A stretch of 56,921 nucleotides of DNA, taken from contig MGDU01000023.1 of NCBI GenBank assembly GCA_001790815.1, positions 1-56,921 of the forward strand. The letters run 5' to 3'. The notes under the pieces were generated by a model. The model did not search any database, was not told the origin of the DNA, and saw only the letters and a list, made by a program, of their open reading frames with translations. Shown one piece after another: positions 5,674 through 41,846 of the stretch. Position 1 is the stretch's first letter; every line of letters begins with the position of its first letter. This DNA comes from Candidatus Uhrbacteria bacterium RIFCSPHIGHO2_02_FULL_46_47. GTDB taxonomy: Bacteria > Patescibacteriota > Patescibacteriia > GWA2-47-26. Position numbers and translations under genes: made by a program.

Positions 5674-5682
5674 AGGTGCAAT

Positions 5683-5781
5683 GCTGTGATGCAAATCTAC
5701 AAATCTTATGCTAATCTACGAATTGCGAATGAATTATTTGTTATTTGTAGATTGGCATGAAATTCGTACATTGGCATCATA
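5683..5781. repeat. ~97-bp AT-rich hairpin repeat, copy 1 (family H)
   Basis: Near-identical to 30060-30154 (reverse complement) and 40847-40945. 36-bp imperfect terminal inverted arms. Confidence 0.92.
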
Positions 5782-5784
5782 GTT

Positions 5785-7200
5785 TTATCCAATCGGTAAG
5801 TTCTCGGGCGTTTCCTCAGCCGGCAATTCTTTCGGCGATGGAGTATGCACGCCGCCGCCATGCCGGCCGGCTACGCCGCCCATTGGAAGTTCGCGGGGTG
5901 GCTCCGCGCGCTTACTCTCGGCTTTCTTAATAAGCGGCGCTTTTACCGCCTCCGCAATTGGGAAATGCCAAAGCGTGGCCAGCTCTTCAATATTGAGAAC
6001 ATACCCAATATGTCCTCGCCAATTACTGCGCGCTTTGTAGGCGCGGACAATTTTTCTGCGTTTCCAATTTTTGCGCTGTTCCTTAAAAAGATAATGCGCG
6101 TGCGTGCCGATTTTTTTCGTATCCGGCTTTAAGGCATTGAGATCTTCTGTATTGACCTGTTTCATGGCGCCAACCATTCCCCAGGCGACTTTTGGCCGAT
6201 TCATTATATCATGGGGCGCTACATAAATCCCCCGTATTTTTGTGTGAAATCCAATTTTTGCCGCCTTGTGCTCAATTTCCTCAATAATTTCCCTTTCCCC
6301 CGGAGTTAAATACAGCATCTTGGATGGCAATGATTCTTTGGCGTGCGCGTCATGCGCGGGATCTCCCGGCATAAACGCGTCAATTACCATCTCTCCAATA
6401 AGTCCGGGAACGCGCATTATTTTATCAAACAATGTTGTCTTATGTTCTGAAGGAATTCCGGCAAGTTTTTCAATCAAATGATAACTTTTATCCTGCCAGC
6501 TATGAGACGCGATAGGAGTAATAATAATCTGCAACCCGGCAAATTCACCTTGGCGCAGAGAACTAAATGTTTCAAGAAGCGCCGCCATTGGATCCTTAAA
6601 GGTGGCTTCCTCCGCGGTTTCATCATGAAACTCTTCATAGGTGCGAATGGGATATGCTTGTGGCTGAACCAGTTTCCATTCAGTTCCCCATAATTGCCAC
6701 TCCGGATTTGGATATTGATTGGGAAACCACTGCGCGTAATCTTCCGCTTCTCTAATTTCGGCACTTGGGTATTGCGCGTAAATAGCAGACTCAACAAGAT
6801 CGCGCGTTTTAGTTGTAGTGTAAATATAAAATTGTATGTGCCCCTCGGTGCTTACGATTTCCAAGCTGAAATAGGGCTGGGAAAACCCGGTAATGTATTT
6901 CTGTATTAAATCCGGCTTATCATGCGCGCCAGCCAGATGGGCTAAAACATTTTCCACTGCCTTAAGCGTTTGAATATTCTCAGCTGGAACATCAACTGCT
7001 AGCAGCACCCACTTATATTCCCCAGCCGCCTTAAGGGTAATATGCAGTATCCACATCCACTTAAATCCCGCAAAAATCGCGATAACCATGGGAATCCAAG
7101 CTCCATGAATAAACAAATACCACATGCCGTGCAGTGGCGACTGCGCCGCGGCCGCCAAAAGCGGGGTAAAATCAAGAGTCAGCGGGCCAATCTGGATCAT
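5785..7200 (-). CDS. Conserved CPR membrane-anchored protein, partner of the VirB4-like ATPase
   Basis: N-terminal TM segment, FSLEIVSTEGHIQFY, YPIRTY, LNIEELATLWHFP motifs. Start at 7200, 8 nt after TATACT. Confidence 0.75.
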   Translation of the reverse strand: MIQIGPLTLDFTPLLAAAAQSPLHGMWYLFIHGAWIPMVIAIFAGFKWMWILHITLKAAGEYKWVLLAVDVPAENIQTLKAVENVLAHLAGAHDKPDLIQKYITGFSQPYFSLEIVSTEGHIQFYIYTTTKTRDLVESAIYAQYPSAEIREAEDYAQWFPNQYPNPEWQLWGTEWKLVQPQAYPIRTYEEFHDETAEEATFKDPMAALLETFSSLRQGEFAGLQIIITPIASHSWQDKSYHLIEKLAGIPSEHKTTLFDKIMRVPGLIGEMVIDAFMPGDPAHDAHAKESLPSKMLYLTPGEREIIEEIEHKAAKIGFHTKIRGIYVAPHDIMNRPKVAWGMVGAMKQVNTEDLNALKPDTKKIGTHAHYLFKEQRKNWKRRKIVRAYKARSNWRGHIGYVLNIEELATLWHFPIAEAVKAPLIKKAESKRAEPPRELPMGGVAGRHGGGVHTPSPKELPAEETPENLPIG

Positions 7201-10393: not shown

Positions 10394-11437
10394 TCACGCA
10401 AGCCGCCTCACAATCCCTTGCTCCGCATCTACCTCCAACCGATCACCGGTTTTTAATTGCTCCGTTGCAGTTTTAAGACCAACAACAGTTGGCACCTTTA
10501 GCTCGCGCGCCATAATTGCGGCATGGCAAGTTACACCGCCCTGATCAGTTACGATTGCTCGCACGCGTTTCAGATATGGCACGATGGTATAGCGCGTCAT
10601 AGAACATACCAGTATTGCGCCACGCGGGATGCGCTTAAAATCTTCCGCATTAAACGCCACATATGCCTTTCCCTTTACTTTTCCGGAATAAACAGTTTGA
10701 CCTTTGAATTCGCAAAACTGATCTGTAGCTTGAAAACGCAAAAATTCTTTGGCAAATATACGGTCCGCTTCACGATTCCAATATACGCGAGTCTTGCCAT
10801 TAAGAGTTAAAAGCGCACAGGTTTTCCGTTGTTTAAAATCTTTGGGAAACGTCTTTGTCAAAAGTACTGCTTGAACCTCGCTGGGTAAAAGTTTCATAGC
10901 ATCGCCCACTGGTATCCCTAGTAATGGTCCTAATCGTAAGCGATACATTGGCTCCAATTTAGCAAGTTGCCGCGCGGCATAATCCCTGTCTAAGCCAAAC
11001 CGGTAAATAAGATGTTTATTTTTCTGCACCCCCACCATCTCCGCCAATTCAGGAGTTTGGAAAACTGCACAAAATGTGCCCCATGCTTGATAAAATTTAT
11101 CAATGTTTTGCTCTAAATTTGCTCTGCTTGAGAATGTATTTTGGGTAATTGAGAGTAGATCATCTGCCGCAGATCGAATCGCTTTTCCCACTTGCTTAAC
11201 AAAATGCGGATTGAAATTTTTTTCCAAGAATATTTTTAATCCCTTAAGATCGGCAACGCCGCGGAGTGAATATTCAAATCCATTGATATAATAAAATAAG
11301 GTATTCCGAAATCGCCACCGCAAAGCTGAATTTTTTCCGCGCACATATCCCGCATTCACCAAAAATATATCAAACGGAAAAAACTCCACTTTGCGAATCA
11401 AATACCACCGCCCTACTTTTTGATATCCCATGTTCAT
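10394..11437 (-). CDS. PEP-utilizing enzyme mobile (phospho-His swivel) domain protein 1
   Basis: C-terminal ILVCSMT...IVTDQGGVTCHAAIMARELKVPTVVG...VDAEQG. No ATP-grasp domain. Confidence 0.88.
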   Translation of the reverse strand: MNMGYQKVGRWYLIRKVEFFPFDIFLVNAGYVRGKNSALRWRFRNTLFYYINGFEYSLRGVADLKGLKIFLEKNFNPHFVKQVGKAIRSAADDLLSITQNTFSSRANLEQNIDKFYQAWGTFCAVFQTPELAEMVGVQKNKHLIYRFGLDRDYAARQLAKLEPMYRLRLGPLLGIPVGDAMKLLPSEVQAVLLTKTFPKDFKQRKTCALLTLNGKTRVYWNREADRIFAKEFLRFQATDQFCEFKGQTVYSGKVKGKAYVAFNAEDFKRIPRGAILVCSMTRYTIVPYLKRVRAIVTDQGGVTCHAAIMARELKVPTVVGLKTATEQLKTGDRLEVDAEQGIVRRLA

Positions 11438-12156: not shown

Positions 12157-12259
12157 TCTCACCGCACAGTTCACCTGTTTCGGCTCCGGCGTGCGCACTG
12201 CGCGCACCCGGGGCCGTATTATTTTCCCAGCACTTTCATATATGAAAGTGCTACCTGTT

Positions 12260-13291
12260 TCACAATTTCTTCACAACCCCCCTCTCCGCATCCACCTCCA
12301 CTCGATCACCATTTTTTAAAACTCTTGTCGCAAACCTCGTCCCAATTACACACGGTATCTTCATCTCGCGCGAAATAATTGCGGCATGCGAGGTAAGCCC
12401 GCCCTCATCAGTAACAATCGCGTCGGCATATTTCAGGAGTGGAACAAACTCGGGAGTCGTCATTGACGTTACAAGAATAAACCTCTCTCGCACCCTCACC
12501 CCCTTTGGATTGGAAATTATTTTCACTGATCCCCGTGCAGTACCGCGGCATGCGATTGTACCACGTAATTCGCGGACTTCCCTCACTCGCAACCTGCCAA
12601 GCTCCTTTTGAATAAACTGGTCTGCTTTCTTATCGGTTAAGATACGCTCCCCTCTTGCATCTCTATATACCACGGTTCGCTTTTGCCGTTCTTTATGCAG
12701 TTTTACTGCTTTCTGAAAATTCTTTGTCCGGAGCCCCTCTAAAAATTCCTGAGCAGTCAAGGATTTTATTGCTTCTTTAGGTACATGATATTTTCTTGCC
12801 AGTGTTTCCCAAACTTTTTCAAGTTCACTGCGAATCTCTGTCCAGGAATTTTTGAAATCCAGGCGCAGTTTGCCAACTTTCCAAAGAAAAGCGCGAGGTA
12901 GCTCATGCTCATACCCGATGATACGGGTAATCACCCGATAAGTAGTAAAAAGCCGGTATGCTCGGGCAAAATTCTCAAAAGGTACAACGAGAGACATGTT
13001 CTTCTTTGTAGCACGAGTGAGATCTTTAAGTGCGCGCCGCACGTTGCGCTGATACCGAGGAAGTTCTGCAAGAATGCAGGCCGCGGCTGTGCGATTAGAA
13101 ACTAAAACTTTTGTCTGGCGTTTCACTTCAGAAGTGAGCACATAAAAACTTGCCTCGCCATCTTCCATCAATAAAAAAGTACGACTGTAGGGTACGCCAA
13201 GCACCTCTCCAAGTTCATGAAGATCTCCATCGCACAAAAGCGAAGCATCCAAAATATACAAAGGCCTTTTCACGCTAAAAAACCAACGCAT
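12260..13291 (-). CDS. PEP-utilizing enzyme mobile domain protein 2
   Basis: ILVTSMTTPEFVPL...IVTDEGGLTSHAAIISREMKIPCVIG...VDAERG. Confidence 0.9.
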   Translation of the reverse strand: MRWFFSVKRPLYILDASLLCDGDLHELGEVLGVPYSRTFLLMEDGEASFYVLTSEVKRQTKVLVSNRTAAACILAELPRYQRNVRRALKDLTRATKKNMSLVVPFENFARAYRLFTTYRVITRIIGYEHELPRAFLWKVGKLRLDFKNSWTEIRSELEKVWETLARKYHVPKEAIKSLTAQEFLEGLRTKNFQKAVKLHKERQKRTVVYRDARGERILTDKKADQFIQKELGRLRVREVRELRGTIACRGTARGSVKIISNPKGVRVRERFILVTSMTTPEFVPLLKYADAIVTDEGGLTSHAAIISREMKIPCVIGTRFATRVLKNGDRVEVDAERGVVKKL

Positions 13292-13322: not shown

Positions 13323-13439
13323 TTATCTCACCTCATCCCGCTTTAAAATTTCCTCAATCACAAAACTCAGCTTCGGCTGCACAAACCTCCGCAAAAACTG
13401 ATGAATATTCTCGGTTGTGATTTCAAATCTACTCCCCAT
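13323..13439 (-). CDS. Possible 38-aa small protein
   Basis: MGSRFEITTENIHQFLRRFVQPKLSFVIEEILKRDEVR, preceded by AAGGAG. Too short for the track. Confidence 0.35.
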   Translation of the reverse strand: MGSRFEITTENIHQFLRRFVQPKLSFVIEEILKRDEVR

Positions 13440-13485: not shown

Positions 13486-13527
13486 AAACAAAAAGTTCCA
13501 TACTTGGAACTATGGAACTTTTTGTTT
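13486..13527. promoter_or_regulatory. Palindrome T, downstream copy (17-8-17)
   Basis: AAACAAAAAGTTCCATA-CTTGGAAC-TATGGAACTTTTTGTTT. Contains the stop of the TrpR-like gene; 36-bp core identical to 14221-14256. Confidence 0.85.
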
Positions 13528-14142
13528 GACTTTGCCAAGTTGCATTTCTTTTTCAAGTTGCTGCGGTTTGCGGGGGCTGGTACGTTCCACGCGAAATAGT
13601 GCTTCAAGATAGCGAAACACTTCGCGTTTGCCTTTCCCGGATCCACGCAAAATCTTCAGGGTCTCCAGCATTCGCTTCCGTTGACGGTTATTCGCCGCGC
13701 GCGCAATTTCCTCAAGAATACCTTGCGGCCAGAAATAAAGCGGATAGCGGCGTTTCAGGTGTGCCCAACTTCCCCACATCTCACCAGCATGAGCAGGTGG
13801 CTGCCAAAGTGGCACAGCCATGTCCTCCTTGGCAAGACCACGTGCCATAACCATCCGCAAACCTTCCCCGGCTTGCTGCAACCATAAATTCACGCGCGCG
13901 ATAGTTTGCTGACTCACCTTGAGTTCTTGCCGAATCTGTTCGTACTTTTTGCCTTTGAGTAGTTGCTTTGCGATCTGCAGCCGTTTTGCTACCATGCGCA
14001 GCTCTGGCTCTGATAGTAAATCACCAAGCACTCTGGCCGACTCCTTAAGATTTTTGACCATCACCATGGATTGACAGAGTTCGAGCAACACCCTTTGCTG
14101 TGCTTCTTTTTCAAGTTTTTGCCGGGGAGTAAATTTTGCCAT
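13510..14142 (-). CDS. TrpR-like (YerC/YecD family) DNA-binding protein with C-terminal extension
   Basis: LGDLLSEPELRMVAKRLQIAKQLLKGKKYEQIRQELKVSQQTIARVN helix-turn-helix. Confidence 0.85.
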   Translation of the reverse strand: MAKFTPRQKLEKEAQQRVLLELCQSMVMVKNLKESARVLGDLLSEPELRMVAKRLQIAKQLLKGKKYEQIRQELKVSQQTIARVNLWLQQAGEGLRMVMARGLAKEDMAVPLWQPPAHAGEMWGSWAHLKRRYPLYFWPQGILEEIARAANNRQRKRMLETLKILRGSGKGKREVFRYLEALFRVERTSPRKPQQLEKEMQLGKVKQKVP

Positions 14143-14163
14143 AAAAGAAGAGGGGGGGTAAAG

Positions 14164-14223
14164 TCACGTTATTGACGTTTTCACGTTATTGACAAGTATA
14201 CCATGCACTTCGGTTTTGAGCAA
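14164..14223 (-). promoter_or_regulatory. Promoter TTGCTC-N17-TATACT with downstream 13-bp direct repeats
   Basis: -10 at 14200-14195 and -35 at 14223-14218. TCACGTTATTGAC at 14164-14176 and 14181-14193. Confidence 0.55.
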
Positions 14224-14256
14224 AAAGTTCCATACTTGGAACTATGGAACTTTTTG
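14221..14256. promoter_or_regulatory. Palindrome T, upstream copy
   Basis: CAAAAAGTTCCATACTTGGAACTATGGAACTTTTTG, overlapping the predicted -35. Confidence 0.85.
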
Positions 14257-14302
14257 TCAAGTTTTCTTGGTGTTACCTTTTTTGCCCTGTATTTTCAGAA
14301 TA

Positions 14303-15077: not shown

Positions 15078-15109
15078 TTAGTCTCCTAGTCGTGCGACTA
15101 AGAGACTAA
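15078..15109. promoter_or_regulatory. Palindrome R, copy downstream of arsR-like gene (15-2-15)
   Basis: TTAGTCTCCTAGTCG-TG-CGACTAAGAGACTAA, one mismatch. Confidence 0.8.
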
Positions 15110-15122
15110 CGCTACTCTGACT

Positions 15123-15386
15123 TTATTTTTTGAAATGTTTAAGCAACGACTGTAAAATCGGGTGCTGACGGTTGAGCGTGCACCATATCCAAAGCGAGGA
15201 CTGTTTGCGGCATATAAAATCACACTCTACTAATTTCTGAATATGCTTGGAGGTGCTTTTCAAGGATAACCCGATTCGTTTTGCAACGCGGTTTATTGGC
15301 AACGGCTCATGTTTGGCAAGTTCTTGCAAAATGCGCAACCGCCGCTCATTCGCCAACGCTTTGAGACATTTGGTCAATTCTTTCAT
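15123..15386 (-). CDS. ArsR/SmtB family transcriptional regulator
   Basis: LKALANERRLRILQEL...IAKRIGLSLKSTSKHIQKL winged HTH. Confidence 0.9.
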   Translation of the reverse strand: MKELTKCLKALANERRLRILQELAKHEPLPINRVAKRIGLSLKSTSKHIQKLVECDFICRKQSSLWIWCTLNRQHPILQSLLKHFKK

Positions 15387-15430: not shown

Positions 15431-15489
15431 CATATGCCCAGCCACTCTCCTAGTCGCACGACTAGGAGAGTGGCACGACTAGGAGAGTG
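15431..15489. promoter_or_regulatory. Palindrome R (16-2-16) within a 45-bp direct repeat, plus duplicated half-site
   Basis: GCCACTCTCCTAGTCG-CA-CGACTAGGAGAGTGGC (15441-15474). 15431-15475 identical to 16235-16279; extra ACGACTAGGAGAGTG at 15475-15489. Confidence 0.88.
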
Positions 15490-15496
15490 ATAAATT

Positions 15497-16237
15497 TTAT
15501 GAGTCCCAATAAATCTGTCCAGTTCTATAAGCTTCCATATCGTCCGCCACTGTTGCAAACAGTGGCGTTGGCAAATTATTTAAATCATACCAATCCCATC
15601 CCACACATTTATCCGGCTCTAATACCTGTGGATTGCCGCTTTCCCAATCTACCGAAAGGCTGACATGCACATAGTGCTTTGGCGCATATGCTTTCATATT
15701 TAGCAAGCGTAAAAAGCGTATATTTTTTATTGCAATTCCAGTTTCTTCCTTTACTTCTCGTTTTGCGCAATCTGCGAATGATTCCATATAATCAAGATGT
15801 CCGCCAGGCCAAGCATACTCCCCATCCCCGTGCGAGCTTTTGCGCTTGCCAAGCAAAACTTTACCGTCTTTCCAAATCATCACTCCAATCCCTACCCGTG
15901 GCCGCGTATACGGATGATTGGCTGGCAATGTCGTCACTTCTAGTTCTGTAATAATCCGCTTTTCAAATTTACCACGCTCGTTTGCTTTGTGATCTTTTAT
16001 TTTTGCAATCGCCTGCGAAACCCATTTTCTATAATTGCAAATCGCATCTATTACCTCCAATACATCTGCCATTTCTTCTTGGTTTTCAGCTTCCAAAAAT
16101 TCCGCCACTTCTTCCTGCAATTTTTCCTTTAATTTCTGCTCATACTCCGCATCACTGGCAATATGCGTTACCAACACCTCACCTTTCTCCTTAATAATCT
16201 CCGGTATTTTATCCCGCACGAGTTTAGAATATTTCAT
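15497..16237 (-). CDS. Fusion of all-alpha NTP pyrophosphohydrolase (MazG/HisE-like) and Nudix hydrolase
   Basis: N: KLVRDKIPEII...KLQEEVAEF...EEMADVLEVI. C: PGGHLDYMESFADCAKREVKEETG Nudix box. Start 16237. Confidence 0.85.
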   Translation of the reverse strand: MKYSKLVRDKIPEIIKEKGEVLVTHIASDAEYEQKLKEKLQEEVAEFLEAENQEEMADVLEVIDAICNYRKWVSQAIAKIKDHKANERGKFEKRIITELEVTTLPANHPYTRPRVGIGVMIWKDGKVLLGKRKSSHGDGEYAWPGGHLDYMESFADCAKREVKEETGIAIKNIRFLRLLNMKAYAPKHYVHVSLSVDWESGNPQVLEPDKCVGWDWYDLNNLPTPLFATVADDMEAYRTGQIYWDS

Positions 16238-16279
16238 ATGCCCAGCCACTCTCCTAGTCGCACGACTAGGAGAGTGGCA
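16235..16279. promoter_or_regulatory. Palindrome R, third copy (45-bp direct repeat including the start codon)
   Basis: CATATGCCCAGCCACTCTCCTAGTCGCACGACTAGGAGAGTGGCA. Confidence 0.88.
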
Positions 16280-27895: not shown

Positions 27896-27939
27896 GCAAC
27901 TTCCTGCAATTTCATATTGCCATGGCAGTATGAAATTGC
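27896..27939. promoter_or_regulatory. Palindrome P, downstream copy
   Basis: GCAACTTC, then GCAATTTCATA-T-TGCCATGGCA-G-TATGAAATTGC (27906-27939). Confidence 0.8.
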
Positions 27940-28496
27940 TATAGATCAAAATAATGCCGCATAACGCGCTCATACTGGCCTAGCGATTGGGCAAGAAGAA
28001 GCGACACATGGCCGTCAATTTCGTAGAATTTGCAAATGCGCTCTAGTTCTTTATCGCATGGATACGGACACACAAACACGCTTTTTTGAATCGGCCGGAA
28101 TCCGAGCGCTTTAAGATGCTGACGAAGAAATTCGCGTGATACTTTTTTGACTGTCGGCACATCAAATGCCGCTATGCGCCACACACCATCCCATCGTGCC
28201 GGTTTTTCTAATTGCATGTTCCAAAGCTCATCTCGTTCAAGCGCCGCCTTGCCCTTTGGCGCGAGCTTTGCAATAATTCTGCCTTCATGATCTTCCTTGA
28301 GTTCAATGAGTTTAAGCCGATGAAGACTTTTGAGCCGTGTGCGCACATACCAAATTTTATACTTTGCAAAACGCGCAAGCATTTTCGGAGCGCCCGGCCC
28401 GACAAATCCGGCAAGTGTAATAACTATTGCGCTCTCCGCAAGTGTTTCAAGAATTAATTTAGTAAGCTCTCTTTTATATCGCTTGCGCCTTATCAT
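27939..28496 (-). CDS. PaaX-like winged-helix regulator with Cas2-like ferredoxin-fold C-terminus (CPR family)
   Basis: WDGVWRIAAFDVP...REFLRQHLKALGFRPIQKSVFVCPYPC. Confidence 0.8.
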   Translation of the reverse strand: MIRRKRYKRELTKLILETLAESAIVITLAGFVGPGAPKMLARFAKYKIWYVRTRLKSLHRLKLIELKEDHEGRIIAKLAPKGKAALERDELWNMQLEKPARWDGVWRIAAFDVPTVKKVSREFLRQHLKALGFRPIQKSVFVCPYPCDKELERICKFYEIDGHVSLLLAQSLGQYERVMRHYFDL

Positions 28497-28527: not shown

Positions 28528-28551
28528 GCAACTTCGCATTGCCATGGCAAT
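28528..28551. promoter_or_regulatory. Palindrome P, upstream copy
   Basis: GCAACTTC-GC-ATTGCCATGGCAAT (perfect 14-bp palindrome at 28538-28551). Confidence 0.75.
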
Positions 28552-28567
28552 TTGAATTTGGTAAACA

Positions 28568-29991: not shown

Positions 29992-30059
29992 AATAGATGT
30001 GCACAATTATACCACAGATCATCCCCTTGACTCCATAATCTGCGGGATATAAGGTAGGG

Positions 30060-30154
30060 ATGATGCCAATATACGAATTTCATGCCAATCTACAAATACA
30101 AATGAATTCATTCGCAATTCGTAGATTAGCATAAGATTTGTAGATTTGCATCAC
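30060..30154. repeat. ~97-bp hairpin repeat, copy 2 (family H)
   Basis: ATGATGCCAATATACGAATTTCATGCCAATCTACAAAT...ATTCGTAGATTAGCATAAGATTTGTAGATTTGCATCAC, 4 nt before the dnaB ATG. Confidence 0.92.
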
Positions 30155-30158
30155 CTCT

Positions 30159-31529
30159 ATGCCGTCGCGTACGAATATTGAACGCATTCCTCCGCAAAAC
30201 CTTGAAGCCGAACAATCGCTTTTGGGTTCGCTTTTGATTGACCGCGACGCCATGATTAAAATCGCGGATTCAATAACGCCGGAAGATTTTTACAAAGACA
30301 GCCACCGCATGATTTTTGAGGCCATGACGGATTTGTTTCGCGAGCGCGAGCCAATTGATCTGCTTTCACTTGGCAACCGCCTTGAAGAAAAAAAACAGCT
30401 TGAAACTGTTGGCGGACGCAGTTACCTGATTGAACTTTCCAACGCGGTGCCCACCGCGGCAAATGTTCCGCACTACGCCGGCATTGTGCAAAAAAAAGCC
30501 ACTCTGCGCCGGCTTCAACGCGCCGCCGCGGAAATTACAAATCTGTCATTTGAAGAGGCCGAGGAGATTGACCATATTCTTGACAAATCCGAGCAAAAAC
30601 TTTTTGGCGTATCACAAAAATATTTGAAGCAAACTTTTGTGCCGATTCGCGATGTTTTGACCGAGGCCTTTGACCGCATTGATGAGTTGCACCGTGAAAA
30701 AGGAAAATTGCGCGGATTGCCAACCGGATTTTTTGAGCTTGATAATATTTTAGCCGGACTGCAAAAATCCGATCTGGTGATTTTGGCCGCTCGTCCATCA
30801 ATTGGAAAAACTTCGCTTGCCTTGGACATCGCTCGCAATGTCGCCACCCGACAAAAAGAACCCGTTGGTGTATTTAGTTTGGAAATGTCCAAGGAGCAAT
30901 TGGTTGATCGTTTAATCTGCGCTGAGGCCGGGGTTGATCTTTGGCGCATGCGCACCGGCCGTTTGTCGGACAAACCGGAACAAGATGATTTCCCCCGCAT
31001 TGGCCATGCTATCGGCATGCTTTCTGAAGCGCCGCTTTATATTGATGATTCGGCATCTTCTTCGATTATGGAAATTCGCACTAAAGCGCGACGATTGCAG
31101 ATGGAAAAGGGATTGAGTCTTTTAGTAATTGACTATTTACAACTTATGGAATCGCACACCAGAATTGAAAATCGCGTGCAAGAAGTTTCCGAAATAACCC
31201 GCGCGTTAAAATCTATCGCGCGCGAACTGAATATTCCGGTGCTTGCGCTTTCACAACTTTCCCGGGCAGTTGAAGCCCGCTCGCCAGCCATTCCAAAACT
31301 CGCGGATTTGCGCGAAAGCGGATCAATTGAACAAGACGCGGATGTGGTACTTTTTATCTATCGCAAAGCCATGGACAAGAGTCAGCAAAATCTTACTCCG
31401 GAAGAGCGCAATATTGCCGAAATACATATTTCCAAGCACCGCAACGGCCCAACCGGCCAAGTGCAATTATTTTTTGATGAACAAAAAGTAAGTTTCCGCA
31501 ATCTGGATAAAACGGCTACACCGTTTTAA
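30159..31529 (+). CDS. dnaB: Replicative DNA helicase
   Basis: PPQNLEAEQSLLG, AARPSIGKT, VIDYLQLM, DLRESGSIEQDAD, KHRNGPTG. No intein. Confidence 0.99.
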   Translation: MPSRTNIERIPPQNLEAEQSLLGSLLIDRDAMIKIADSITPEDFYKDSHRMIFEAMTDLFREREPIDLLSLGNRLEEKKQLETVGGRSYLIELSNAVPTAANVPHYAGIVQKKATLRRLQRAAAEITNLSFEEAEEIDHILDKSEQKLFGVSQKYLKQTFVPIRDVLTEAFDRIDELHREKGKLRGLPTGFFELDNILAGLQKSDLVILAARPSIGKTSLALDIARNVATRQKEPVGVFSLEMSKEQLVDRLICAEAGVDLWRMRTGRLSDKPEQDDFPRIGHAIGMLSEAPLYIDDSASSSIMEIRTKARRLQMEKGLSLLVIDYLQLMESHTRIENRVQEVSEITRALKSIARELNIPVLALSQLSRAVEARSPAIPKLADLRESGSIEQDADVVLFIYRKAMDKSQQNLTPEERNIAEIHISKHRNGPTGQVQLFFDEQKVSFRNLDKTATPF

Positions 31530-34678: not shown

Positions 34679-37300
34679 TTACAATTTCTCCGCTTTTTCT
34701 ACGCGCAACTGGCCTCCTTTTTCCAGCACTACAACATCGCGGCGGCTAAGTTTGGCAGTTAAAAGCAGGTTTGCCAGAGCGTCCTGCACCCGCTCTTGAA
34801 TAACGCGCCTCAGCGGCCGAGCGCCAAATTGCGGATCAAATCCCGCATGCGCAAGCTCGGCAATTGCCTCATCAGTTGCGCGAAAAGTAATTCCTTTGGC
34901 CTCCAGCTGTTTGGCGATTTTCGCGATAATCAAGCGCGCAATCTGTACAATTTCTTCTTCAGTAAGCGGCTTATATACAATCACCGCGTCAAAACGATTC
35001 AAAAATTCCGGCCTGAAATACTGTTTAAGTTCGCGTTCCAAAAGTCCTTTTTTAATTTCTTCAATCGCAGTACCCTTCTTGAGCTCTTCTTGAACATATG
35101 GTGATCCTGCGTTGGAAGTTGCGATAATAATCGCATTGGTAAAATCAATAACTCGTCCGGCGCTGTCGGTTGCGCGTCCGTCATCTAGAACTTGCAAAAA
35201 GATATTTAAAATATCCGGGTGCGCTTTTTCAAGCTCATCCAAAAGCACAAGTGAAAACGGATTTTTGCGCACCGGTTCTGTAAGCAAGCCGCCGCTTTCC
35301 CCCGGCGCTCCAATTATGCGATATACCGCGCTCTTCTCTTGGTATTCAGACATATCCAAGCGAATCATGTTTTCTTCATTGCCAAAATATACTTCCGCCA
35401 CGGTTTTTGCAGTTTCTGTTTTTCCAACACCAGTAGGGCCAAGGAACAAAAAGTTTGCGATTGGTCTTTTTTCTGTACGAAGTTCTGCGCGCGCGCGGCG
35501 AAGCGCGGCGGCAACCGCCTTCACTGCCTCGTCTTGCCCAATTATCCGCTCATGCATAATACTCTCAAGGTGCAACAATTTATCTGCCTCTTTTGCGGTA
35601 ACCGAAGTAACCGGCACATGCGATTTTTGTGAAATAATTTCCGCCACATCTTCTCCGCGCACCAGAGCTTTTTCACCGCGGTGACTGCGCGTATATTGTG
35701 CAGCTTCTTTGATAATATCAATAGCTTTTTCAGGAAGATAATGATCTTTTATATAGCGATCAGTTAGAATGACTGCTTTTTCAAGCGCGCTATAAGAGAA
35801 AAAAGTTTTGGTTTGATATTCAATCGCGCCGACCTTGGATTCCAGAATCTGAATTGTTGTGGAATGATCCGTCTCAGCAATTTCAACAATAACAAACGCA
35901 TTGCCAAGCGCGGTTCCTTCAATGCGGCTGCGATATTCCTCTGGCGTGGTTGTGGCAATCGCCAGAAAATATCCTTTGCTCAACTCGCCTGCCAGTACTT
36001 CAGCCAAATCAAGTCCGCCCGCACCACGTCCTGCGCTTGCTTCATGCACATTGGGAATAGCCAGTACAACATTTCCCGATCGTCCCACATCGTTTAAACA
36101 TGTAAGTAATCGCTGCTCTGCTTCACTTGTTGTTGCGCCGGCAATAAGCTTAGGAAGCGAAAGTGATACAAATCGGCGATCTTGAATAATTTTAGGCACT
36201 TCTTCTTCAACCATCTGCTCTGCTATCCCATTGAGAATTGTCTCTTTTCCAACACCATGCGGACCTACAAGCAATACACTTTTTCGTTCGCCTTGCAGCA
36301 CGCGGAAAATTGCCTCAAATTCCTTTTCGCGATTAACAACAAGTTCAAGATATCCGCGGCCGGCCAAAAGCGTTAAATCGTCCGAGAAACGATCCAGCCG
36401 GCGAGTCTCAAGCGCGGTCATAGCGCGATTCATAGCGCCCGTAGGCTTGCGCGAGGCCGCACCGCGAAACTTACGCCACCGCGCGCGTAATTTATCATTA
36501 ATTTCAAGCCAGCGTACCGCGTTGCGTAATTTTTCCTGATCAACCCCAAGATCAAATAAAATCTCCGTAAGTTTTTCATTTTGCAAAATTGTTTCCAAAA
36601 AAATATGGTGTGTGCCGAGCGTTTGCGCCCGCGCCGTCTGCGCATCGCGATACGCGGCAATCACTGCTTGTTTGGCAGGGTCGCCAAAGATTGGTTGCCC
36701 CTCACCCTCCCCTCTCCCTAAGGGAGAGGATGGCCGTAGGTCAGGTGAGGGCGTCTGTAACACATGCTTTAATCTTTCCTGCAACCCCTTTCCATCAACT
36801 TCAAGGCGCACGAGCAAGGACGCTACCGCGGGAGAACCTAGAAGCGCGGCCAACATATGCGCATTTCGTACTTCAGCATGTTTTAATCTGCTGGTAAATA
36901 AATACGCGTCTTTAATCCTGCGCTCACTATCTTGCGACAACGCGCGCGAAACATCAATACGTTTCCCCTCACCCCTCCCTCTCCCTAAGGGAGAGGATGT
37001 CCGCAGGGCAGGTGAGGGTCGCACATCTTCTTTCCCTTCATCACTCCGCAATACTCGCGCCACTAAATACAAATCCGCAAGCAGTGTAATTCCAAAAATA
37101 AATTTCGCTTTGCTTGGCAATAACCAATAGCTAATAGCCAATAGCCGTTCCACATTTGGCCATGTTTCAAATACAAGCGCTAAAATTCCCAACACGCCAA
37201 ACGCGGCCACCAGTATCGCCACTGCCGCACGCGCAACACGAGCTACACGCTGCGCAAAAAGTGTTGCCCGATCGATTTTTGCGCCAAAATAAAGTTCCAT
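34679..37300 (-). CDS. Membrane-anchored ClpA/B/C-family AAA+ ATPase with two family A inserts
   Basis: N-terminal TM pair, Clp-N repeats, degenerate D1, intact D2 (FLGPTGVGKTE, LLDELEKAH, FRPEFLNRFD, GARPLRR). Start 37300. Confidence 0.9.
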   Translation of the reverse strand: MELYFGAKIDRATLFAQRVARVARAAVAILVAAFGVLGILALVFETWPNVERLLAISYWLLPSKAKFIFGITLLADLYLVARVLRSDEGKEDVRPSPALRTSSPLGRGRGEGKRIDVSRALSQDSERRIKDAYLFTSRLKHAEVRNAHMLAALLGSPAVASLLVRLEVDGKGLQERLKHVLQTPSPDLRPSSPLGRGEGEGQPIFGDPAKQAVIAAYRDAQTARAQTLGTHHIFLETILQNEKLTEILFDLGVDQEKLRNAVRWLEINDKLRARWRKFRGAASRKPTGAMNRAMTALETRRLDRFSDDLTLLAGRGYLELVVNREKEFEAIFRVLQGERKSVLLVGPHGVGKETILNGIAEQMVEEEVPKIIQDRRFVSLSLPKLIAGATTSEAEQRLLTCLNDVGRSGNVVLAIPNVHEASAGRGAGGLDLAEVLAGELSKGYFLAIATTTPEEYRSRIEGTALGNAFVIVEIAETDHSTTIQILESKVGAIEYQTKTFFSYSALEKAVILTDRYIKDHYLPEKAIDIIKEAAQYTRSHRGEKALVRGEDVAEIISQKSHVPVTSVTAKEADKLLHLESIMHERIIGQDEAVKAVAAALRRARAELRTEKRPIANFLFLGPTGVGKTETAKTVAEVYFGNEENMIRLDMSEYQEKSAVYRIIGAPGESGGLLTEPVRKNPFSLVLLDELEKAHPDILNIFLQVLDDGRATDSAGRVIDFTNAIIIATSNAGSPYVQEELKKGTAIEEIKKGLLERELKQYFRPEFLNRFDAVIVYKPLTEEEIVQIARLIIAKIAKQLEAKGITFRATDEAIAELAHAGFDPQFGARPLRRVIQERVQDALANLLLTAKLSRRDVVVLEKGGQLRVEKAEKL
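36698..36751. repeat. Family A element in frame in the Clp ATPase
   Basis: Encodes PSPDLRPSSPLGRGEGEG. Confidence 0.9.
36965..37018. repeat. Family A element in frame in the Clp ATPase
   Basis: Encodes PSPALRTSSPLGRGRGEG. Confidence 0.9.
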
Positions 37301-37768: not shown

Positions 37769-39130
37769 CTAGAGTGTGCCTTCCACTACTGCGTTTTGTA
37801 GTCCCACCATAAAATCAAGATAAAATTTCACATTGTGAATGGTAGCAAGACGAAGCGCAAGCGGTTCATTGATTTTGAAAAGATGCCGAAGATACGCGCG
37901 ACTGTGGTGCGTGCAAGTAAAACATTCACAATACGGATCAATAGGCTTAAAATCCGCGCGATATTTTTCATTGGTGATGCGCATGGTGTCGTAAAAATTG
38001 CCTCGTAACCCCCTCTCACTCCCCCTTACCCTAAGGGGGAGAAGCGGCCGGTCTCCCTCCCTTAAGGTAAGGGAGGGCTGGGGAGGGTTATGACGCCACA
38101 CATATAAATTTCCATGCCTTGCATTTCTTGTGGGCAGTACACAGTCAAACATATCAATGCCACGCCGCACGGCCTCCACAAGTTCCTCCGGTTGGCCAAG
38201 ACCCATAAGATAGCGCGGTTTATCTTCCGGTAACATCGGCGCGACCCAATCTACCACTTGGTATTTTTCTTTTTGCGGCTCACCTACTGCCACTCCGCCA
38301 ATTGCATAGCCATCAAAATCCAGCGCCACCAAATCCCGCGCTGATTGCTCACGCAAATCCTTATACACTGATCCCTGCACAATGCCAAAAACCAATGTTT
38401 TAATGCTTTCATGTTTTAATACTTTCATGCTCCTCTCCGCCCAAGAGGTTGTTCTCTCCATTGCCTCCCGCGCGCCTTCTTTTGAAATCGGGTACGGCGC
38501 GCAAACATCCAGCACCATGGCAATATCTGATCCAATCACTTTTTGAATCTCCAGCACGCGCTCAGGTGTGAACATATCTTTTCTGCCACTTATCCGATCA
38601 ATAAACTCCGCACCGTCTTTAGTTATGCGGACATCATAATCCTGACCCTCACCCTCCCCTCTCCCTCGGGGAGAGGGAAATTGATTAGACCCCCCTCTAC
38701 CCGCGGGAGAGGGTGTCCGAAGGACGGGTGAGGGGTTACGATTCTTATTTGCTAGGCTAAACACCTGATACCCACCAGAATCAGTCAAAATCGGCCCATT
38801 CCATCCCATAAACTTGTGCAATCCGCCGGCTTTTTTAATTACCTCCATTCCCGGCCGCACATAAAGATGGTAGGTGTTGGAAAGCAAAATCGGCCCGCCT
38901 CTCCCACCACCGCTCATGCCTCCACTCCGTTTCGGTTCTGTGGCACCAGCATCTCGGCGGGCAAGCGCACCAATCTCCCTCATATCTTCCGCCGCCAATG
39001 TCTTGACTGCCCCGCGCGTGGCAATGGTCATAAAAAACGGCGTGCGTACTTTCCCATGCGCAGTCCTCAACTCTCCCACCCGTGCTCGGGATTTTTTTGA
39101 CTGGTGTAATACGCGAAATGGATTCATCAT
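37769..39130 (-). CDS. tgt: tRNA-guanine transglycosylase with three inserts
   Basis: SNTYHL, LTDSGGYQVFSL, GIVQG, YLMG, DMFDCVLPTRNARHG, C.C..C...HN zinc site. Confidence 0.97.
   Translation of the reverse strand: MMNPFRVLHQSKKSRARVGELRTAHGKVRTPFFMTIATRGAVKTLAAEDMREIGALARRDAGATEPKRSGGMSGGGRGGPILLSNTYHLYVRPGMEVIKKAGGLHKFMGWNGPILTDSGGYQVFSLANKNRNPSPVLRTPSPAGRGGSNQFPSPRGRGEGEGQDYDVRITKDGAEFIDRISGRKDMFTPERVLEIQKVIGSDIAMVLDVCAPYPISKEGAREAMERTTSWAERSMKVLKHESIKTLVFGIVQGSVYKDLREQSARDLVALDFDGYAIGGVAVGEPQKEKYQVVDWVAPMLPEDKPRYLMGLGQPEELVEAVRRGIDMFDCVLPTRNARHGNLYVWRHNPPQPSLTLREGDRPLLPLRVRGSERGLRGNFYDTMRITNEKYRADFKPIDPYCECFTCTHHSRAYLRHLFKINEPLALRLATIHNVKFYLDFMVGLQNAVVEGTL
38006..38092. repeat. Family B element in frame in tgt
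   Basis: Encodes [29 protein letters not shown]. Confidence 0.9.
38646..38735. repeat. Family A doublet in frame in tgt
   Basis: Encodes PSPVLRTPSPAGRGGSNQFPSPRGRGEGEG. Confidence 0.9.
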
Positions 39131-40491: not shown

Positions 40492-40845
40492 TTATCGTGC
40501 CGCCACTACTCCGGTGGTGGCCGAGACATATTGCACATTGGTGGCGGCGACCATGCCAGACTGTTTAACCCACTCTTCAATGCGCGCGGGCGATTGCGCC
40601 TCTGCTACTTTCAAATTGAGTTTTTTATTTTCCAATTTCAAATCTTCAATACGGCGCTCTAAATCGCGAATTTTATAGCCGCGAGTAGAAATAGTAATAA
40701 CGCTAACAAGGTAAGAAAAACCCACTACCATAAGCGCGACAAGTAAAATTCCACGCCAACTTTTTTGCTTGCTCAAAAATCTGACGAATAAACTAATTCG
40801 CCGCATGGTGTGATGGACTCTTGTGAGATGAAAATGCCTAGGCAT
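40492..40845 (-). CDS. ftsL: FtsL-like cell division protein
   Basis: Follows mraZ-rsmH. Basic N-terminus, one TM, coiled coil, SPARIEEW. Confidence 0.7.
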   Translation of the reverse strand: MPRHFHLTRVHHTMRRISLFVRFLSKQKSWRGILLVALMVVGFSYLVSVITISTRGYKIRDLERRIEDLKLENKKLNLKVAEAQSPARIEEWVKQSGMVAATNVQYVSATTGVVAAR

Positions 40846-40846
40846 A

Positions 40847-40945
40847 GCTGTGATGCAAATCTACAAATCTTATGCTAATCTACGAATTGTGAATAAATTC
40901 ATTTGTATTTGTAGATTGGCATGAAATTCGTATATTGGCATCATA
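40847..40945. repeat. ~97-bp hairpin repeat, copy 3 (family H)
   Basis: Spans from the rsmH stop codon to just before the ftsL ATG. Confidence 0.92.
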
Positions 40946-41846
40946 CTTTTGCGACTACGCGAAGTTTTGCACTTCTTGCTTTTGGATTATTTTTGATTTC
41001 CTCATCGCTGGCTACAACTGGCTTCTTGGTAAGTATTTTTATTTTTGCATCTGGCCAGCTACGGAAAAACTGCTTTACAATCCTATCTTCAAGCGAATGA
41101 AATGCGATTACAGCCAATCGCCCGCCCGCTTGAAGTACTTCCACTGCTTGCGGTAGTACTTCTTGCAATGCGCCAAGTTCATCATTTACCTCTATTCTCA
41201 AAGCCTGAAATGTCTTAGTTGCAGGGTGAATCCCTCCCACCCAAGGCACTTCCTGCTTTGATTTTAATTTTTCACGATACGCCATGAGCACTGTTTCCAC
41301 TAATTGCTTAGTCATCACAATCGGTTTTTTTTTCCGTTCTGCCACGATTTTGCTTGCAATCTCACGCGCTAATTTTTCTTCTCCATATTCTTCAAGGAGC
41401 TCTGCAATCTGCCTTTGATCCCAGCCATTTACAATCTCTGCCGCACGAATGCCGCCTCTTGGATCAAACCGCATATCCAGCAGTTCATCCTTTTCAAAGC
41501 TGAATCCCCTACCTCGCTCAAGCGTTGAGGTAGAAAATCCCAGATCAAGCAAGATCCCATACACTGGTCCAAACTTTTTTTCTCTCACAATCGCCGCCAA
41601 GTTCCGAAAATTATCATTTTCCAATATCAACCGATTCCCTAATTCCTGATTCCTAATTCCTGATTCCACGATTGCTATTGCATCAGGGTCAGCATCAATA
41701 CCGAGAAGTTGTCCATTTGGAGCAATACGTTCTAGCACAGCAAAGGCATGTCCGCCATCACCTAACGTGCAATCAATGAAATTCTGATTTGGCTTTGGGT
41801 CAAAGAACTTCAGCACCTCTTCTATCATGACCGGCACGTGCGCCAT
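40941..41846 (-). CDS. rsmH: 16S rRNA m4C1402 methyltransferase RsmH
   Basis: HVPVM, DCTLGDGGHA, LLDLGFS, HPATKTFQALRIEVN, FHSLEDR, ARSAKLR. Heptamer insert ESGIRNQELG. Confidence 0.97.
   Translation of the reverse strand: MAHVPVMIEEVLKFFDPKPNQNFIDCTLGDGGHAFAVLERIAPNGQLLGIDADPDAIAIVESGIRNQELGNRLILENDNFRNLAAIVREKKFGPVYGILLDLGFSTSTLERGRGFSFEKDELLDMRFDPRGGIRAAEIVNGWDQRQIAELLEEYGEEKLAREIASKIVAERKKKPIVMTKQLVETVLMAYREKLKSKQEVPWVGGIHPATKTFQALRIEVNDELGALQEVLPQAVEVLQAGGRLAVIAFHSLEDRIVKQFFRSWPDAKIKILTKKPVVASDEEIKNNPKARSAKLRVVAKV

Follow-up and report, generated by a model that had tools for sequence, protein, structure and literature searches.

In phage lambda, the OL and OR operator clusters recognised by CI enclose the cI-rex region and interact by looping, and mycobacteriophages carry stoperators, which are repressor sites within or between genes that stop elongation. 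The operator at the 3' end of lacI also participates in looping (O3/O1). The lac operator overlaps the lacI coding sequence and, according to the passage of PMC13584721 that cites Abo et al. 2000, LacI bound there raises trans-translation of LacI. In the Firmicutes, the gene for HisR (YerC) is itself preceded by a palindromic operator in about half of the genomes, and the HisR motif is the 20-bp cacTTTA-N6-TAAAgtg (PMC9413887).

We analysed a stretch of 56,921 nucleotides (the window) of an uncultured member of the Candidate Phyla Radiation (CPR) from groundwater. Almost none of the CPR bacteria have been cultured, a few growing only in co-culture with a host, and for this reason gene regulation in the CPR is, to our knowledge, almost unstudied. 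We consider it probable, based on the sequence comparisons described below, that a regulator of the YerC/TrpR family has as its cognate operators the two palindromes that enclose its gene in this window. Our literature search turned up no publication dealing with TrpR-like regulators of the CPR or with a bracketed operator layout, and the two-site layout around the regulator gene appears to be undescribed.

The 36-mer CAAAAAGTTCCATACTTGGAACTATGGAACTTTTTG occurs exactly twice in the window, at positions 13489–13524 and 14221–14256, with both copies in the same orientation on the plus strand and 732 bp apart from start to start. An exact repeat of this length is not expected by chance (0 expected, 100 shuffles), and no third copy was found in the 57-kb window even when 3 mismatches were allowed. 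An earlier examination of this DNA (the sequence-only reading) had described two identical 36-bp palindromes about 730 bp apart, and the repeat is as described, with the identity running one base further to 37 bp. The term palindrome applies to the outer arms, which are perfect over 14 bp, but not to the 8-bp centre CTTGGAAC, which is asymmetric and renders the site imperfect. The three GTTCCA/TGGAAC units noted in that reading are likewise real, but GTTCCA proved to be specific to the clade of the window, the family-wide unit being A[C/G]T / ATA[C/G]T. The copies were annotated without strand. The 3' copy (13489–13524) spans the TAG stop codon of the regulator gene at 13510–13512 and encodes the last five residues (KQKVP), as had been claimed. 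The 5' copy (14221–14256), which reads CAAAAAGTTCCATAGTTCCAAGTATGGAACTTTTTG in the orientation of the gene, lies 79–114 nt before the ATG (14142), with its centre 96 nt before the start codon; it matches the family motif defined below at 16/16 positions, and its position is kept in the close relatives L003, L042, L045, L046 and L048.

The gene enclosed by the two copies (13510–14142, minus strand) encodes a protein of 210 aa, and its earlier designation as TrpR-like is borne out by profile and structure searches. Pfam PF01371 (Trp_repressor) matched residues 20–101 with an E-value of 1.7e-13 and 50.9 bits over profile positions 4–86 of 88, above the cut-off of 27 bits. The NCBIfam model TIGR02531 (YerC/YecD) scored 49.8 bits over profile positions 3–87 of 88, above its curated cut-off of 42.2 bits, placing the protein in that family, and the TrpR equivalog TIGR01321 scored 24 bits against a cut-off of 67.25. 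In the AF2 model the N-terminal domain has a pLDDT of 84–93, and the top Foldseek matches were the YerC/HisR-type structures 3KOR, 3FRW and 3G1C, with a target-normalised TM-score (TMt) of 0.73–0.84, followed by E. coli TrpR; by both methods the regulator has the all-helical helix-turn-helix (HTH) fold of TrpR. Its architecture consists of an N-terminal YerC/YecD-type TrpR-like HTH (residues ~12–105) and a conserved helical C-terminal extension (~125–190) that carries a KRRYPLYFWPQ motif, so that at 210 aa it belongs to a long-form subfamily rather than to the single-domain YerC form of ~100 aa. The extension had no Pfam match, and no Foldseek match was obtained outside the N-terminal domain; a phmmer search of 1.8 billion representatives found the C-terminal domain only in proteins of the same architecture.

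A putative promoter for the regulator gene was assigned by consensus match. The candidate extended -10 element TGgTATACT (14195–14203, minus strand, thus reading from 14203 to 14195) follows the 5' copy at a distance of 20 nt, and the first two bases of that copy are shared with a TTGACA at 14260–14255. Given this overlap and the spacing to the extended -10, the 5' site covers the predicted -35 region and DNA upstream of the -35, in agreement with the earlier claim that one copy lies over the -35. TG-n-TATAAT-like boxes are present at an equal distance in L003, L042, L045, L046, L048 and L007. With the 5' copy placed over the -35 region of the promoter from which it is expressed, the regulator gene would be autoregulated, most likely by repression.

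To determine whether paired sites are a property of the family, as the sequence-only reading had proposed to check, we compared homologous loci, and the outcome was clearly positive: a layout in which the flanking palindromes co-vary with the protein is present in about three dozen related genomes. The sites share the motif AST-N3-ATAST-N4-ASTAT-N3-AST, with units spaced 8 bp apart. At least 14 of the 16 motif positions were matched upstream of the gene at 30/40 loci, downstream at 29/38, and on both sides at 26/36, and at least 12 of 16 were matched on both sides at 34/36; matching palindromes therefore flank the gene on both sides at 26–34 of 36 loci from many Patescibacteria lineages, some of the MAG record titles in the locus set being taxonomically implausible. 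A search of JGI metagenomes for close relatives found only 3 loci. The 30 upstream matches fall within 300 nt of the gene, where the background rate would be 0.005 per 280 nt, and thus have the footprint of an autoregulatory operator, and the rest of the same loci (213,681 nt) contained 4 motif matches, all of them perfect extra sites. Across the family the centre of the 5' site has a median position of -52 from the start codon. Information content reaches 1.25–2.0 bits at positions -13, -11 and -7 to -3, and symmetry is 0.75–1.0 at positions 3 to 15. Five short YerC/HisR-type relatives lacking the C-terminal extension (L037–L041, 103–124 aa) have a single upstream palindrome, and the 3' partner site is absent from all five; a HisR-type site is found in three or four of them, for example CACTTTAGTTAAGTAAAGTG in L040, and not in L038.

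The two copies at a locus resemble each other more than they resemble the copies of other genomes. At positions that vary within the family, identity between the 5' and 3' copies is 0.79–0.94 within a genome compared with 0.33–0.46 between genomes, and when the 3' site is compared with the whole of its locus, the 5' site is the best match in nearly all cases. Site subtype varies in step with two hypervariable residues that begin the recognition helix (S-x-x-TIARVN), residues that by alignment we take to be the equivalents of Ile79 and Ala80 of E. coli TrpR. The residues QQ are paired with the site AGT TCC ATAGT TCCA in 7/7 loci, and the pairs SS, PQ, F/YS and NN/TN each go with one site subtype, a correspondence confounded by phylogeny, as relatedness among the proteins goes along with relatedness among their sites. 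Two MAGs encode two paralogs apiece, every paralog having its own pair of sites, and a QQ-type site is present on the contig of a PQ paralog. Agreement at the asymmetric centre, which a symmetric dimer would not read directly, could come from gene conversion between the copies. As the sole cause of copy identity gene conversion is unlikely, because the whole 24-bp core, centre included, is retained throughout the QQ clade, even where the proteins are only 71% identical; this conservation suggests that purifying selection acts across the entire core. The cooperative TrpR-type binding envisaged by the sequence-only reading is consistent with the 8-bp periodicity of the units, which fits TrpR-type binding by several dimers, with contact between this regulator and the site being the presumed part of that claim.

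The window also contains a third site of the motif family, ACTTTCATACACTATAGTATGAAAGT, at 159–184 (no strand assigned). It is of a different subtype and has one mismatch to the pattern, 0.48 such matches being expected in the window. This site is nearly identical to those flanking the 64%-identical homolog in L005, and a second paralog, located outside the window, is its probable reader. Bracketing is not confined to the TrpR-like gene, since the layout occurs at three unrelated regulator genes in the window, the other two being PaaX-like and ArsR-like. The ArsR-like gene has a third copy of its palindrome upstream of the adjacent NUDIX gene. The 4 PaaX-like homologs retrieved gave one informative locus, L052, which is bracketed; L053 ends at a contig edge.

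The likely roles of the 3' copy are those of a roadblock, a looping partner or an operator of the downstream gene. The stop codon of the regulator lies inside or touches the extended 3' site at 24/38 homologous loci, and the centre of the site has a median position of about +16 nt from this stop. Measured toward both neighbours, the median distance of the site is 17 nt to the stop compared with 94 nt to the next start. The site falls in the first half of the downstream spacer at 24/25 loci (p = 1.5e-6), and at 14/15 of the loci whose spacer is at least 100 nt; the 5' site has no comparable bias toward the stop of the preceding gene (12/27). It is conceivable, but on balance doubtful, that the 3' copy is solely an operator or promoter element of the next unit, ancestrally an APH-like kinase gene, and plays no role in expression of the regulator; bracketing would then be a by-product of the co-directional packing of CPR genes, in the order operator, regulator, operator, target. 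Downstream genes are indeed mostly co-directional with the regulator, and within the QQ clade L003 and L045 have a site ahead of the APH-like kinase gene. The L045 ortholog is intact and directly downstream of the regulator gene, and that of L003 has its own site copy 15 nt before the ATG. In the window the kinase persists as an N-terminal remnant, a 38-codon ORF (13326–13439, minus strand) with 68% identity over 37 aa to the N-terminus of L003:282-1331; the ATG of the remnant lies 49 nt downstream of the end and 68 nt downstream of the centre of the 3' site. L003 and L021 have additional site copies at other gene boundaries of the same cluster. Such an explanation sits poorly, however, with the anchoring of the site on the regulator stop rather than on the next start at loci with long spacers, and with the downstream genes being unrelated among phyla (gyrA, uvrD, tyrS/trpS, smpB, scpB, dinB, peptidases and others). 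A common downstream target across phyla was rejected after a Pfam search of 28 downstream proteins revealed no shared family, and this diversity means that no common regulon or ligand can be named. Also difficult to reconcile with an exclusive downstream function are L025, where the predicted downstream ORF is convergent, though without a Pfam match, the PaaX-like regulator of the window, where the analogous 3' palindrome sits between convergent genes, and the lack of a second site at the short homologs.

Two further explanations were considered. The palindromes could insulate the gene by acting as intrinsic terminators in both directions, or as hairpins affecting RNA stability, and would then be identical through duplication and not bound by the regulator, which we regard as improbable. 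As RNA, the window copies fold into a hairpin of -21 kcal/mol, with z about -7 and a U5 tract behind it on both strands, a terminator scan flags both copies on both strands, and the copies are placed after the upstream hydrolase gene and after the regulator gene. Part of the function of the site in the window clade could therefore be exerted at the RNA level. The stem is A+T-rich (4 GC pairs of 15), however, and a T-run follows the core in only 19/74 family sites, many others ending in AGTAAA or AGTATT; we rejected termination as a general function on this ground. What is conserved is a set of specific bases at a fixed 8-bp spacing rather than stem strength. Arm mismatches over 68 sites (GT 26, AC 36, other 111) show no excess of G-U wobble on either strand, and the sites consequently behave as DNA sites and not as RNA stems, so that the RNA-structure explanation was also rejected. 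In addition, many 5' copies are so close to the start codon (14–40 nt) that termination there would switch the gene off, and site subtype follows the recognition-helix residues. An Rfam scan of the window found tRNA alone. The sequence-only reading had alternatively suggested that the copies are the recombination ends of a gene cassette. This, or the related possibility that they are MITE/REP/RPE-like palindromic elements that captured a gene, we judge to be very improbable. In its favour, the window copies are identical and in direct orientation, downstream synteny between the window and L045 is broken at the 3' copy, and solo copies within coding regions, which are unusual for operators, occur in L003, in-frame within a 33-aa insertion of a phosphoribosyltransferase (PRTase) gene, and at 159–184 of the window, inside the mnmA-like coding region. 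Against it, only two copies of the window's subtype are present in its 57 kb, and the orientation of the asymmetric centre is mixed among loci (21 direct, 11 inverted). The regulator gene has as neighbours a hydrolase, NUDIX proteins, PEP-utilizer-domain proteins and the APH remnant; by Pfam and inspection of the neighbours no recombinase or transposase lies in or adjoins the gene, and the C-terminal domain matches no catalytic family. A scan of viral contigs found no relatives. Larger-scale synteny is retained in relatives with respect to the upstream hydrolase and the downstream SecD, secD still following the locus at a distance of a few kb in L003 and the same hydrolase still adjoining it in L045. 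Empty alleles, with one palindrome instead of two, which the earlier reading had proposed to look for, were not found in a limited population search: all 23 contigs with an identical neighbouring hydrolase (23/23) have the occupied arrangement, these strain contigs being ~100% identical and so carrying no information on polymorphism.

We therefore return to the two palindromes as operators of the intervening regulator. The regulator would recognise a symmetric site of 26–40 bp in which the A[C/G]T unit recurs four times at 8-bp intervals, probably binding as more than one dimer, with the 3' copy serving as a second operator on the gene's own stop codon. The better supported of two roles for this second operator is that the bound protein would block or gate transcription leaving the regulator gene; in the window clade this would control the downstream APH-like kinase and phosphoribosyltransferase genes, the kinase gene being a probable conserved target in view of the sites ahead of it in L003, L045 and, as a remnant, the window, and RNA polymerase stalled before the stop codon could give rise to non-stop transcripts, as reported for LacI. 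The less supported role is that the 3' copy may pair with the 5' copy through oligomers formed by the C-terminal extension, looping the ~730-bp gene. Operator looping between the two copies is possible, and it gains indirect support from the occurrence of the second site only with the long, C-terminally extended protein. More tentatively, the locus may exemplify a general design of Patescibacteria in which transcription factor genes are bracketed by their cognate operators. In such a design the protein bound at the 3' operator might stall polymerase before the stop, with the non-stop transcripts being cleared by trans-translation as a negative feedback acting after initiation, or alternatively the 3' operator might loop with the promoter copy through a family-specific C-terminal domain. 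Either way the gene would be insulated from read-through in long co-directional arrays, and two recognition-helix residues would set orthogonal specificities, allowing paralogs to coexist with private site pairs.

For a regulator family of many CPR lineages, these data define a DNA motif and identify its probable reader. They also provide a simple candidate code of two specificity residues, open to testing in E. coli, and a conserved arrangement of two sites around the gene of the regulator, anchored on the stop codon of that gene. Should the 3' site be a roadblock or looping partner, the layout would afford autonomous single-gene control in streamlined genomes, where co-directional gene arrays are long and classical terminators few; if it is only a downstream operator, it would still offer a handle for the reconstruction of CPR regulons.

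In comparison with known systems, the locus is like REP/RAYT in that a gene is flanked by a palindrome that its product, here putatively, recognises, and in that solo copies occur, occasionally inside genes. RAYTs, however, are homologs of HUH/Y1 transposases, and dispersed REP copies number from tens to hundreds, whereas the gene product here is an HTH regulator without a detected catalytic motif and the site is present 2–4 times per locus. Lambda CI and the stoperators serve phage immunity, with several sites per cluster or dozens of asymmetric sites; the regulator examined here is in contrast a chromosomal single-gene module with two symmetric sites, for which the viral-contig scan found no phage context. 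HisR is the closest sequence family, as seen from the TIGR02531 score and the YerC/HisR-type top PDB matches, but it is a protein of ~100 aa with a conserved 'TA' at the two specificity positions that are hypervariable in the present family. Unlike HisR, the regulator has a C-terminal extension, a putative 3' operator and a site of 26–40 bp with another sequence; the window site does not conform to the HisR-regulon operator, and no his genes adjoin the regulator locus. With E. coli TrpR, which binds its trp, aroH and trpR operators as tandem dimers, the regulator shares its fold (Foldseek 1TRO, 1TRR), a T-I-A-R-V-N-like recognition helix and a site at its own promoter, TrpR being autoregulated. 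The operators of both are symmetric and contain ACT/AGT triplets with an 8-bp periodicity, the TrpR consensus being TGTAcTnGTnnACnAgTACA (PMC9413887). Unlike TrpR, the units here are nested (ACT..ACT..AGT..AGT) rather than interleaved, the protein has an extra C-terminal domain of ~100 aa and a putative second operator on its own stop codon, and no trp genes are found near the locus. The likeness to lacI lies in the overlap of the repressor's binding site with the end of its own coding sequence, and roadblocking of the LacI type serves as an analogy for what this family may do. The lac site belongs to the downstream promoter region, with no matching site at the lacI promoter, whereas here two equivalent sites bracket the gene for a regulator of another protein family, in a layout conserved across the superphylum.

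Within its 56,921 bp, the window contains just two exact copies of the 36-mer CAAAAAGTTCCATACTTGGAACTATGGAACTTTTTG (13489–13524 and 14221–14256), both on the + strand and in the same orientation. The identity between the copies reaches 37 bp; no match was found in 100 shuffles, and no third copy was found in the window when up to 3 mismatches were allowed. The two copies enclose an ORF encoding a TrpR-like regulator of 210 aa (13510..14142, minus strand). The 3' copy (13489–13524) includes the TAG stop codon of this gene and encodes KQKVP*, and the 5' copy (14221–14256) lies upstream of the ATG, its proximal end 79 nt away. TTGACA, the putative −35 element, overlaps the distal edge of the 5' copy and a putative extended −10 element (TGgTATACT) is found 20 nt past its proximal edge, indicating that the 5' copy covers the −35 region. 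TGnTATAAT-like boxes in relatives are found at the same distance from the 5' site. These positions confirm the sequence-only reading of two identical, like-oriented palindromes around the gene, one over the predicted −35 and the other over the stop codon; the term palindrome applies to the 14-bp perfect outer arms, but not to the asymmetric 8-bp centre. A 13-nt direct repeat (GTCAATAACGTGA) is present twice with a 17-nt period at 14163–14192 (minus strand), in the presumed 5' leader between the −10 element and the start codon.

The regulator matches almost the entire Pfam Trp_repressor model (1.7e-13) and passes the NCBIfam model TIGR02531 (YerC/YecD), scoring 49.8 bits where 42.2 are required; for the TrpR equivalog it stays below the cut-off (24 versus 67.25). 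The N-terminal domain was confidently predicted (pLDDT 84–93) in an AlphaFold2 model based on 32 homologs. The best PDB matches of this domain were the YerC-type structures 3KOR, 3FRW, and 3G1C, with E. coli TrpR next. Residues 125–190, approximately, form a helical C-terminal extension of moderate model confidence, and the extension contains a conserved KRRYPLYFWPQ..NNRQR motif. No match to the extension was found in Pfam or structure databases, and among the 1.8 billion representative proteins searched it recurred solely in those of the same architecture. The nearest named relatives belong to Candidatus Uhrbacteria and to other Parcubacteria, and the neighbouring genes (SecA, SecDF, NUDIX proteins, a hydrolase, and PEP-utilizer-domain proteins) fit a Patescibacteria genome.

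Related loci were obtained from a screen of GTDB with a single genome for each species (39 loci), from JGI metagenomes (3 loci), and from exact look-ups (4 close relatives). Nearly all the GTDB loci are from the Candidate Phyla Radiation (CPR), including Uhr-, Doudna-, Moran-, Sungii-, Curtiss-, Gottesman-, Berkel-, and Nealson- lineages, WWE3, and Saccharibacteria; some TPA records among them are titled Gammaproteobacteria, labels that were not trusted. At nearly all loci encoding the long form of the protein, with the C-terminal extension, the regulator gene lies between two matching palindromes, and over the approximately 8 kb of each locus the sequence closest to the 3' site is, with few exceptions, the 5' site. 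Alignment by centre revealed a shared motif, A[C/G]T-N3-ATA[C/G]T-N4-A[G/C]TAT-N3-A[G/C]T, commonly lengthened to approximately 40 bp by GACA...TGTC. Its four A-S-T triplets have a regular 8-bp spacing, and its information content is 1.25–2.0 bits at positions −13, −11, and −7 to −3. Matches of at least 14/16 were found upstream of the regulator gene at 30/40 loci, downstream at 29/38, and on both sides at 26/36 (34 loci at a threshold of at least 12/16); the remaining 213,681 nt of the same loci contained 4 matches of at least 14/16, each a perfect extra site. The long-form YerC/TrpR-family regulator is thereby characterized by a new 26–40 bp motif and by conserved bracketing of its own gene.

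The subtype of the site tracks two hypervariable residues within the otherwise invariant S-x-x-T-I-A-R-V-N recognition helix. Proteins with QQ, the clade of the window, are found with AGT TCC ATAGT TCCA/C (7 loci), SS with ACT TCG ATACT TCCC, PQ with ACT ATG/TCC ATACT TCCC, F/YS with ACT ACC AYRCT ACAG, and NN/TN with ACT CYC ATACT CTCT; HisR-type YerC proteins have TA at these positions. We take the two residues to be the counterparts of Ile79 and Ala80 in E. coli TrpR, both known specificity determinants. The family-variable positions of the site (−10 to −8, the centre, and +8 to +10) are 0.71–0.94 identical between the copies of one genome and 0.33–0.46 identical between genomes, so the flanking palindromes of homologs do co-vary, a point the sequence-only reading had raised. 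Both copies are altered in concert at L047, a locus whose NN-type regulator has 79% protein identity to that of the window. In two MAGs, two paralogs coexist and each has a site pair of its own; the contig of the PQ paralog also carries a QQ-type site. Because relatedness of protein and of site are both inherited, the correlation between them is not independent of phylogeny.

Drift plus gene conversion could also keep the two copies of a genome identical, but the entire 24-bp core, including its centre, is conserved within the QQ clade down to 71% protein identity, which argues for selection on the whole site. The palindromes had also been proposed as the recombination ends of a gene cassette. 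The orientation of the centre is mixed (21 direct versus 11 inverted), with a flipped 5' centre being the sole difference of two related loci (L003 and L042) from the window. No recombinase was found near the TrpR-like gene and no relatives of the locus were found among viral sequences. Synteny is retained, with the hydrolase upstream in the related locus L045 and secD a few kb downstream in L003. Empty alleles with a single palindrome did not appear among contigs with an identical hydrolase, all of which have the occupied arrangement. Sequence comparison thus leaves the cassette proposal unsupported and supports a role as operators. A terminator hairpin would account for the predicted fold of the site in the window's clade (−21 kcal/mol, with U5 after it on either strand), and a terminator scan flagged this site. 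Across the family, the arms have a complementarity of 0.75–1.0 over positions 3–15, with none in the central 4 nt; arm mismatches lack a wobble bias (G-T 26, A-C 36, other 111), a T-run is found at just 19/74 sites, and the start codon is only 14–40 nt from many 5' copies. From these features we concluded that the conserved function would be exerted at the DNA level, and termination may be an add-on within the window's clade. We consider it likely that the two palindromes are cognate operators of the enclosed YerC/TrpR-family regulator.

The 3' copy also serves as a putative downstream operator in the window's clade. It is followed by a 38-codon ORF (13326–13439, minus strand), which is what is left of an APH-like kinase gene. 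Only 37 codons survive from the 5' end of that gene, and their product has 68% identity to the N-terminal part of the 350-aa APH-like kinase of L003. Where the rest of the gene would be, there is now one of a pair of PEP-utilizer-domain paralogs (12260..13291 and 10394..11437) that have a 74%-identical stretch in common. An intact APH-like ortholog lies directly downstream of the regulator in L045, where the regulator is 85% identical; in L003 the ortholog is 3.7 kb off and has its own site copy 15 nt before its ATG. L003 contains four site copies within a phosphoribosyltransferase (PRTase) gene cluster. A perfect operator copy (L003 5738–5763) is in-frame (KKFHSSKYGTFF) inside a 33-aa insertion of one of four paralogous PRTase genes, an odd place for an operator, and one reminiscent of palindromic elements inserted in-frame. 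These arrangements hint at a small local regulon, and a link to nucleotide salvage is speculative.

A PaaX-like regulator gene of the window (27939..28496, minus strand; PaaX_M 1.8e-20) has an upstream palindrome, CAAATTCAAATTGCCATGGCAATGCGAAGTTGC, at 28528–28560 and a related 3' palindrome, GCAATTTCATACTGCCATGGCAATATGAAATTGC, at 27906–27939, which abuts the stop codon and sits where two genes converge, with the end of FolD at 27887. In another metagenome, a homolog with 63% identity (L052) lies between copies of a palindrome of its own that differs from those of the window. Three copies of GCCACTCTCCTAGTCG-CA-CGACTAGGAGAGTGGC, at 15078–15109, 15441–15474, and 16245–16278, separate a NUDIX gene (15497..16249), the adjacent ArsR/SmtB-type regulator gene (15123..15386), and a hydrolase gene, and are probably the operator set of the ArsR-like protein; a 45-nt exact repeat (15431–15475 and 16235–16279) takes in the CATATG start-codon context. 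An unbiased scan of approximately 0.34 Mb for matched palindrome pairs recovered the TrpR-like, PaaX-like, and ArsR-type genes, the only other recoveries being one 78-aa ORF and pairs of GC-rich dispersed hairpin repeats. The 78-aa ORF, from a different CPR genome, lies within an exact 24-nt palindrome pair (CGAACAATAAGATTTTACTGTTCG; L018 1213–1236 and 1660–1683) and has no Pfam match.

A third TrpR-family-type site in the window, of a different subtype, is found at 159–184 in an mnmA-like coding region (..HFHTIVYES..), and a core-less palindrome with the same arms (GCACTTTCATA/TATGAAAGTGC) is found at 12228–12253 between two convergent genes; these suggest a second paralog elsewhere in the genome. 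G+C-rich nested hairpin repeats (CCCTCACCC..CCCTCTCCC-N3-GGGAGAGGG..GGGTGAGGG) are present in at least 12 copies within 24233–56873 (e.g. 24245–24265, 36694–36751, 38645–38734, 44060–44117, and 48435–48876), along with a second family (..CCCCTTA-N-TAAGGGG..), and similar elements are found in L003 and L047. The hairpin repeats, some of which fall within long predicted ORFs, look like REP-type intergenic elements. An A+T-rich repeat of approximately 100 nt with internal palindromes (GATGCAAATCTACAAATCTTATGCTAATCTACGAATTGCGAATGAATTC...) is present three times at 91–96% identity (5678–5786; 30052–30163, inverted; 40841–40950); it had no Rfam match at the gathering threshold and could be a MITE or small RNA.

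A median of approximately 16 nt separates the centre of the 3' site from the final base of the regulator stop codon. This codon lies within the 26-bp core at 17/38 loci and within or abutting the 40-bp site at 24/38 loci. The site was found in the first half of the spacer at 24/25 loci with a co-directional downstream gene (p = 1.5e-6) and at 14/15 loci whose spacer is 100 nt or longer, the median distance being 17 nt from the regulator stop versus 94 nt from the start of the downstream gene. The 5' copy exhibited no attraction to the stop of the preceding gene (12/27 loci), and the genes downstream of the 3' site are unrelated from phylum to phylum. Short YerC/HisR-type relatives, which are without the extension (103–124 aa, n = 5), have one upstream palindrome and no 3' partner at the 5 loci. 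Three or four of these five single sites are HisR-like: that of L040 (CACTTTAGTTAAGTAAAGTG) fits the published HisR consensus cacTTTA-N6-TAAAgtg (PMC9413887), those of L039 and L041 have the same TTTA..TAAA pattern, that of L037 is different, and the palindrome of L038, which is weak and distant, departs from the consensus. The position counts and the short relatives indicate that the 3' site is anchored to the 3' end of the regulator gene and co-occurs with the C-terminal extension.

Any specific role for the 3' copy is proposed more tentatively than its identity as a cognate operator. Two mechanisms would be consistent with the anchoring and the co-occurrence: the bound regulator would act as a roadblock that stalls RNA polymerase at the end of its own gene, or the 5' and 3' copies would pair via the C-terminal domain to form a loop. 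We consider each possible but somewhat doubtful. According to PMC13584721, citing Abo et al. 2000, the trans-translation of LacI increases when LacI binds to the lac operator, which overlaps the coding sequence of lacI. The lacI/lac operator arrangement, in which a repressor site likewise overlaps the coding sequence of the repressor's gene, provides a precedent for the roadblock.
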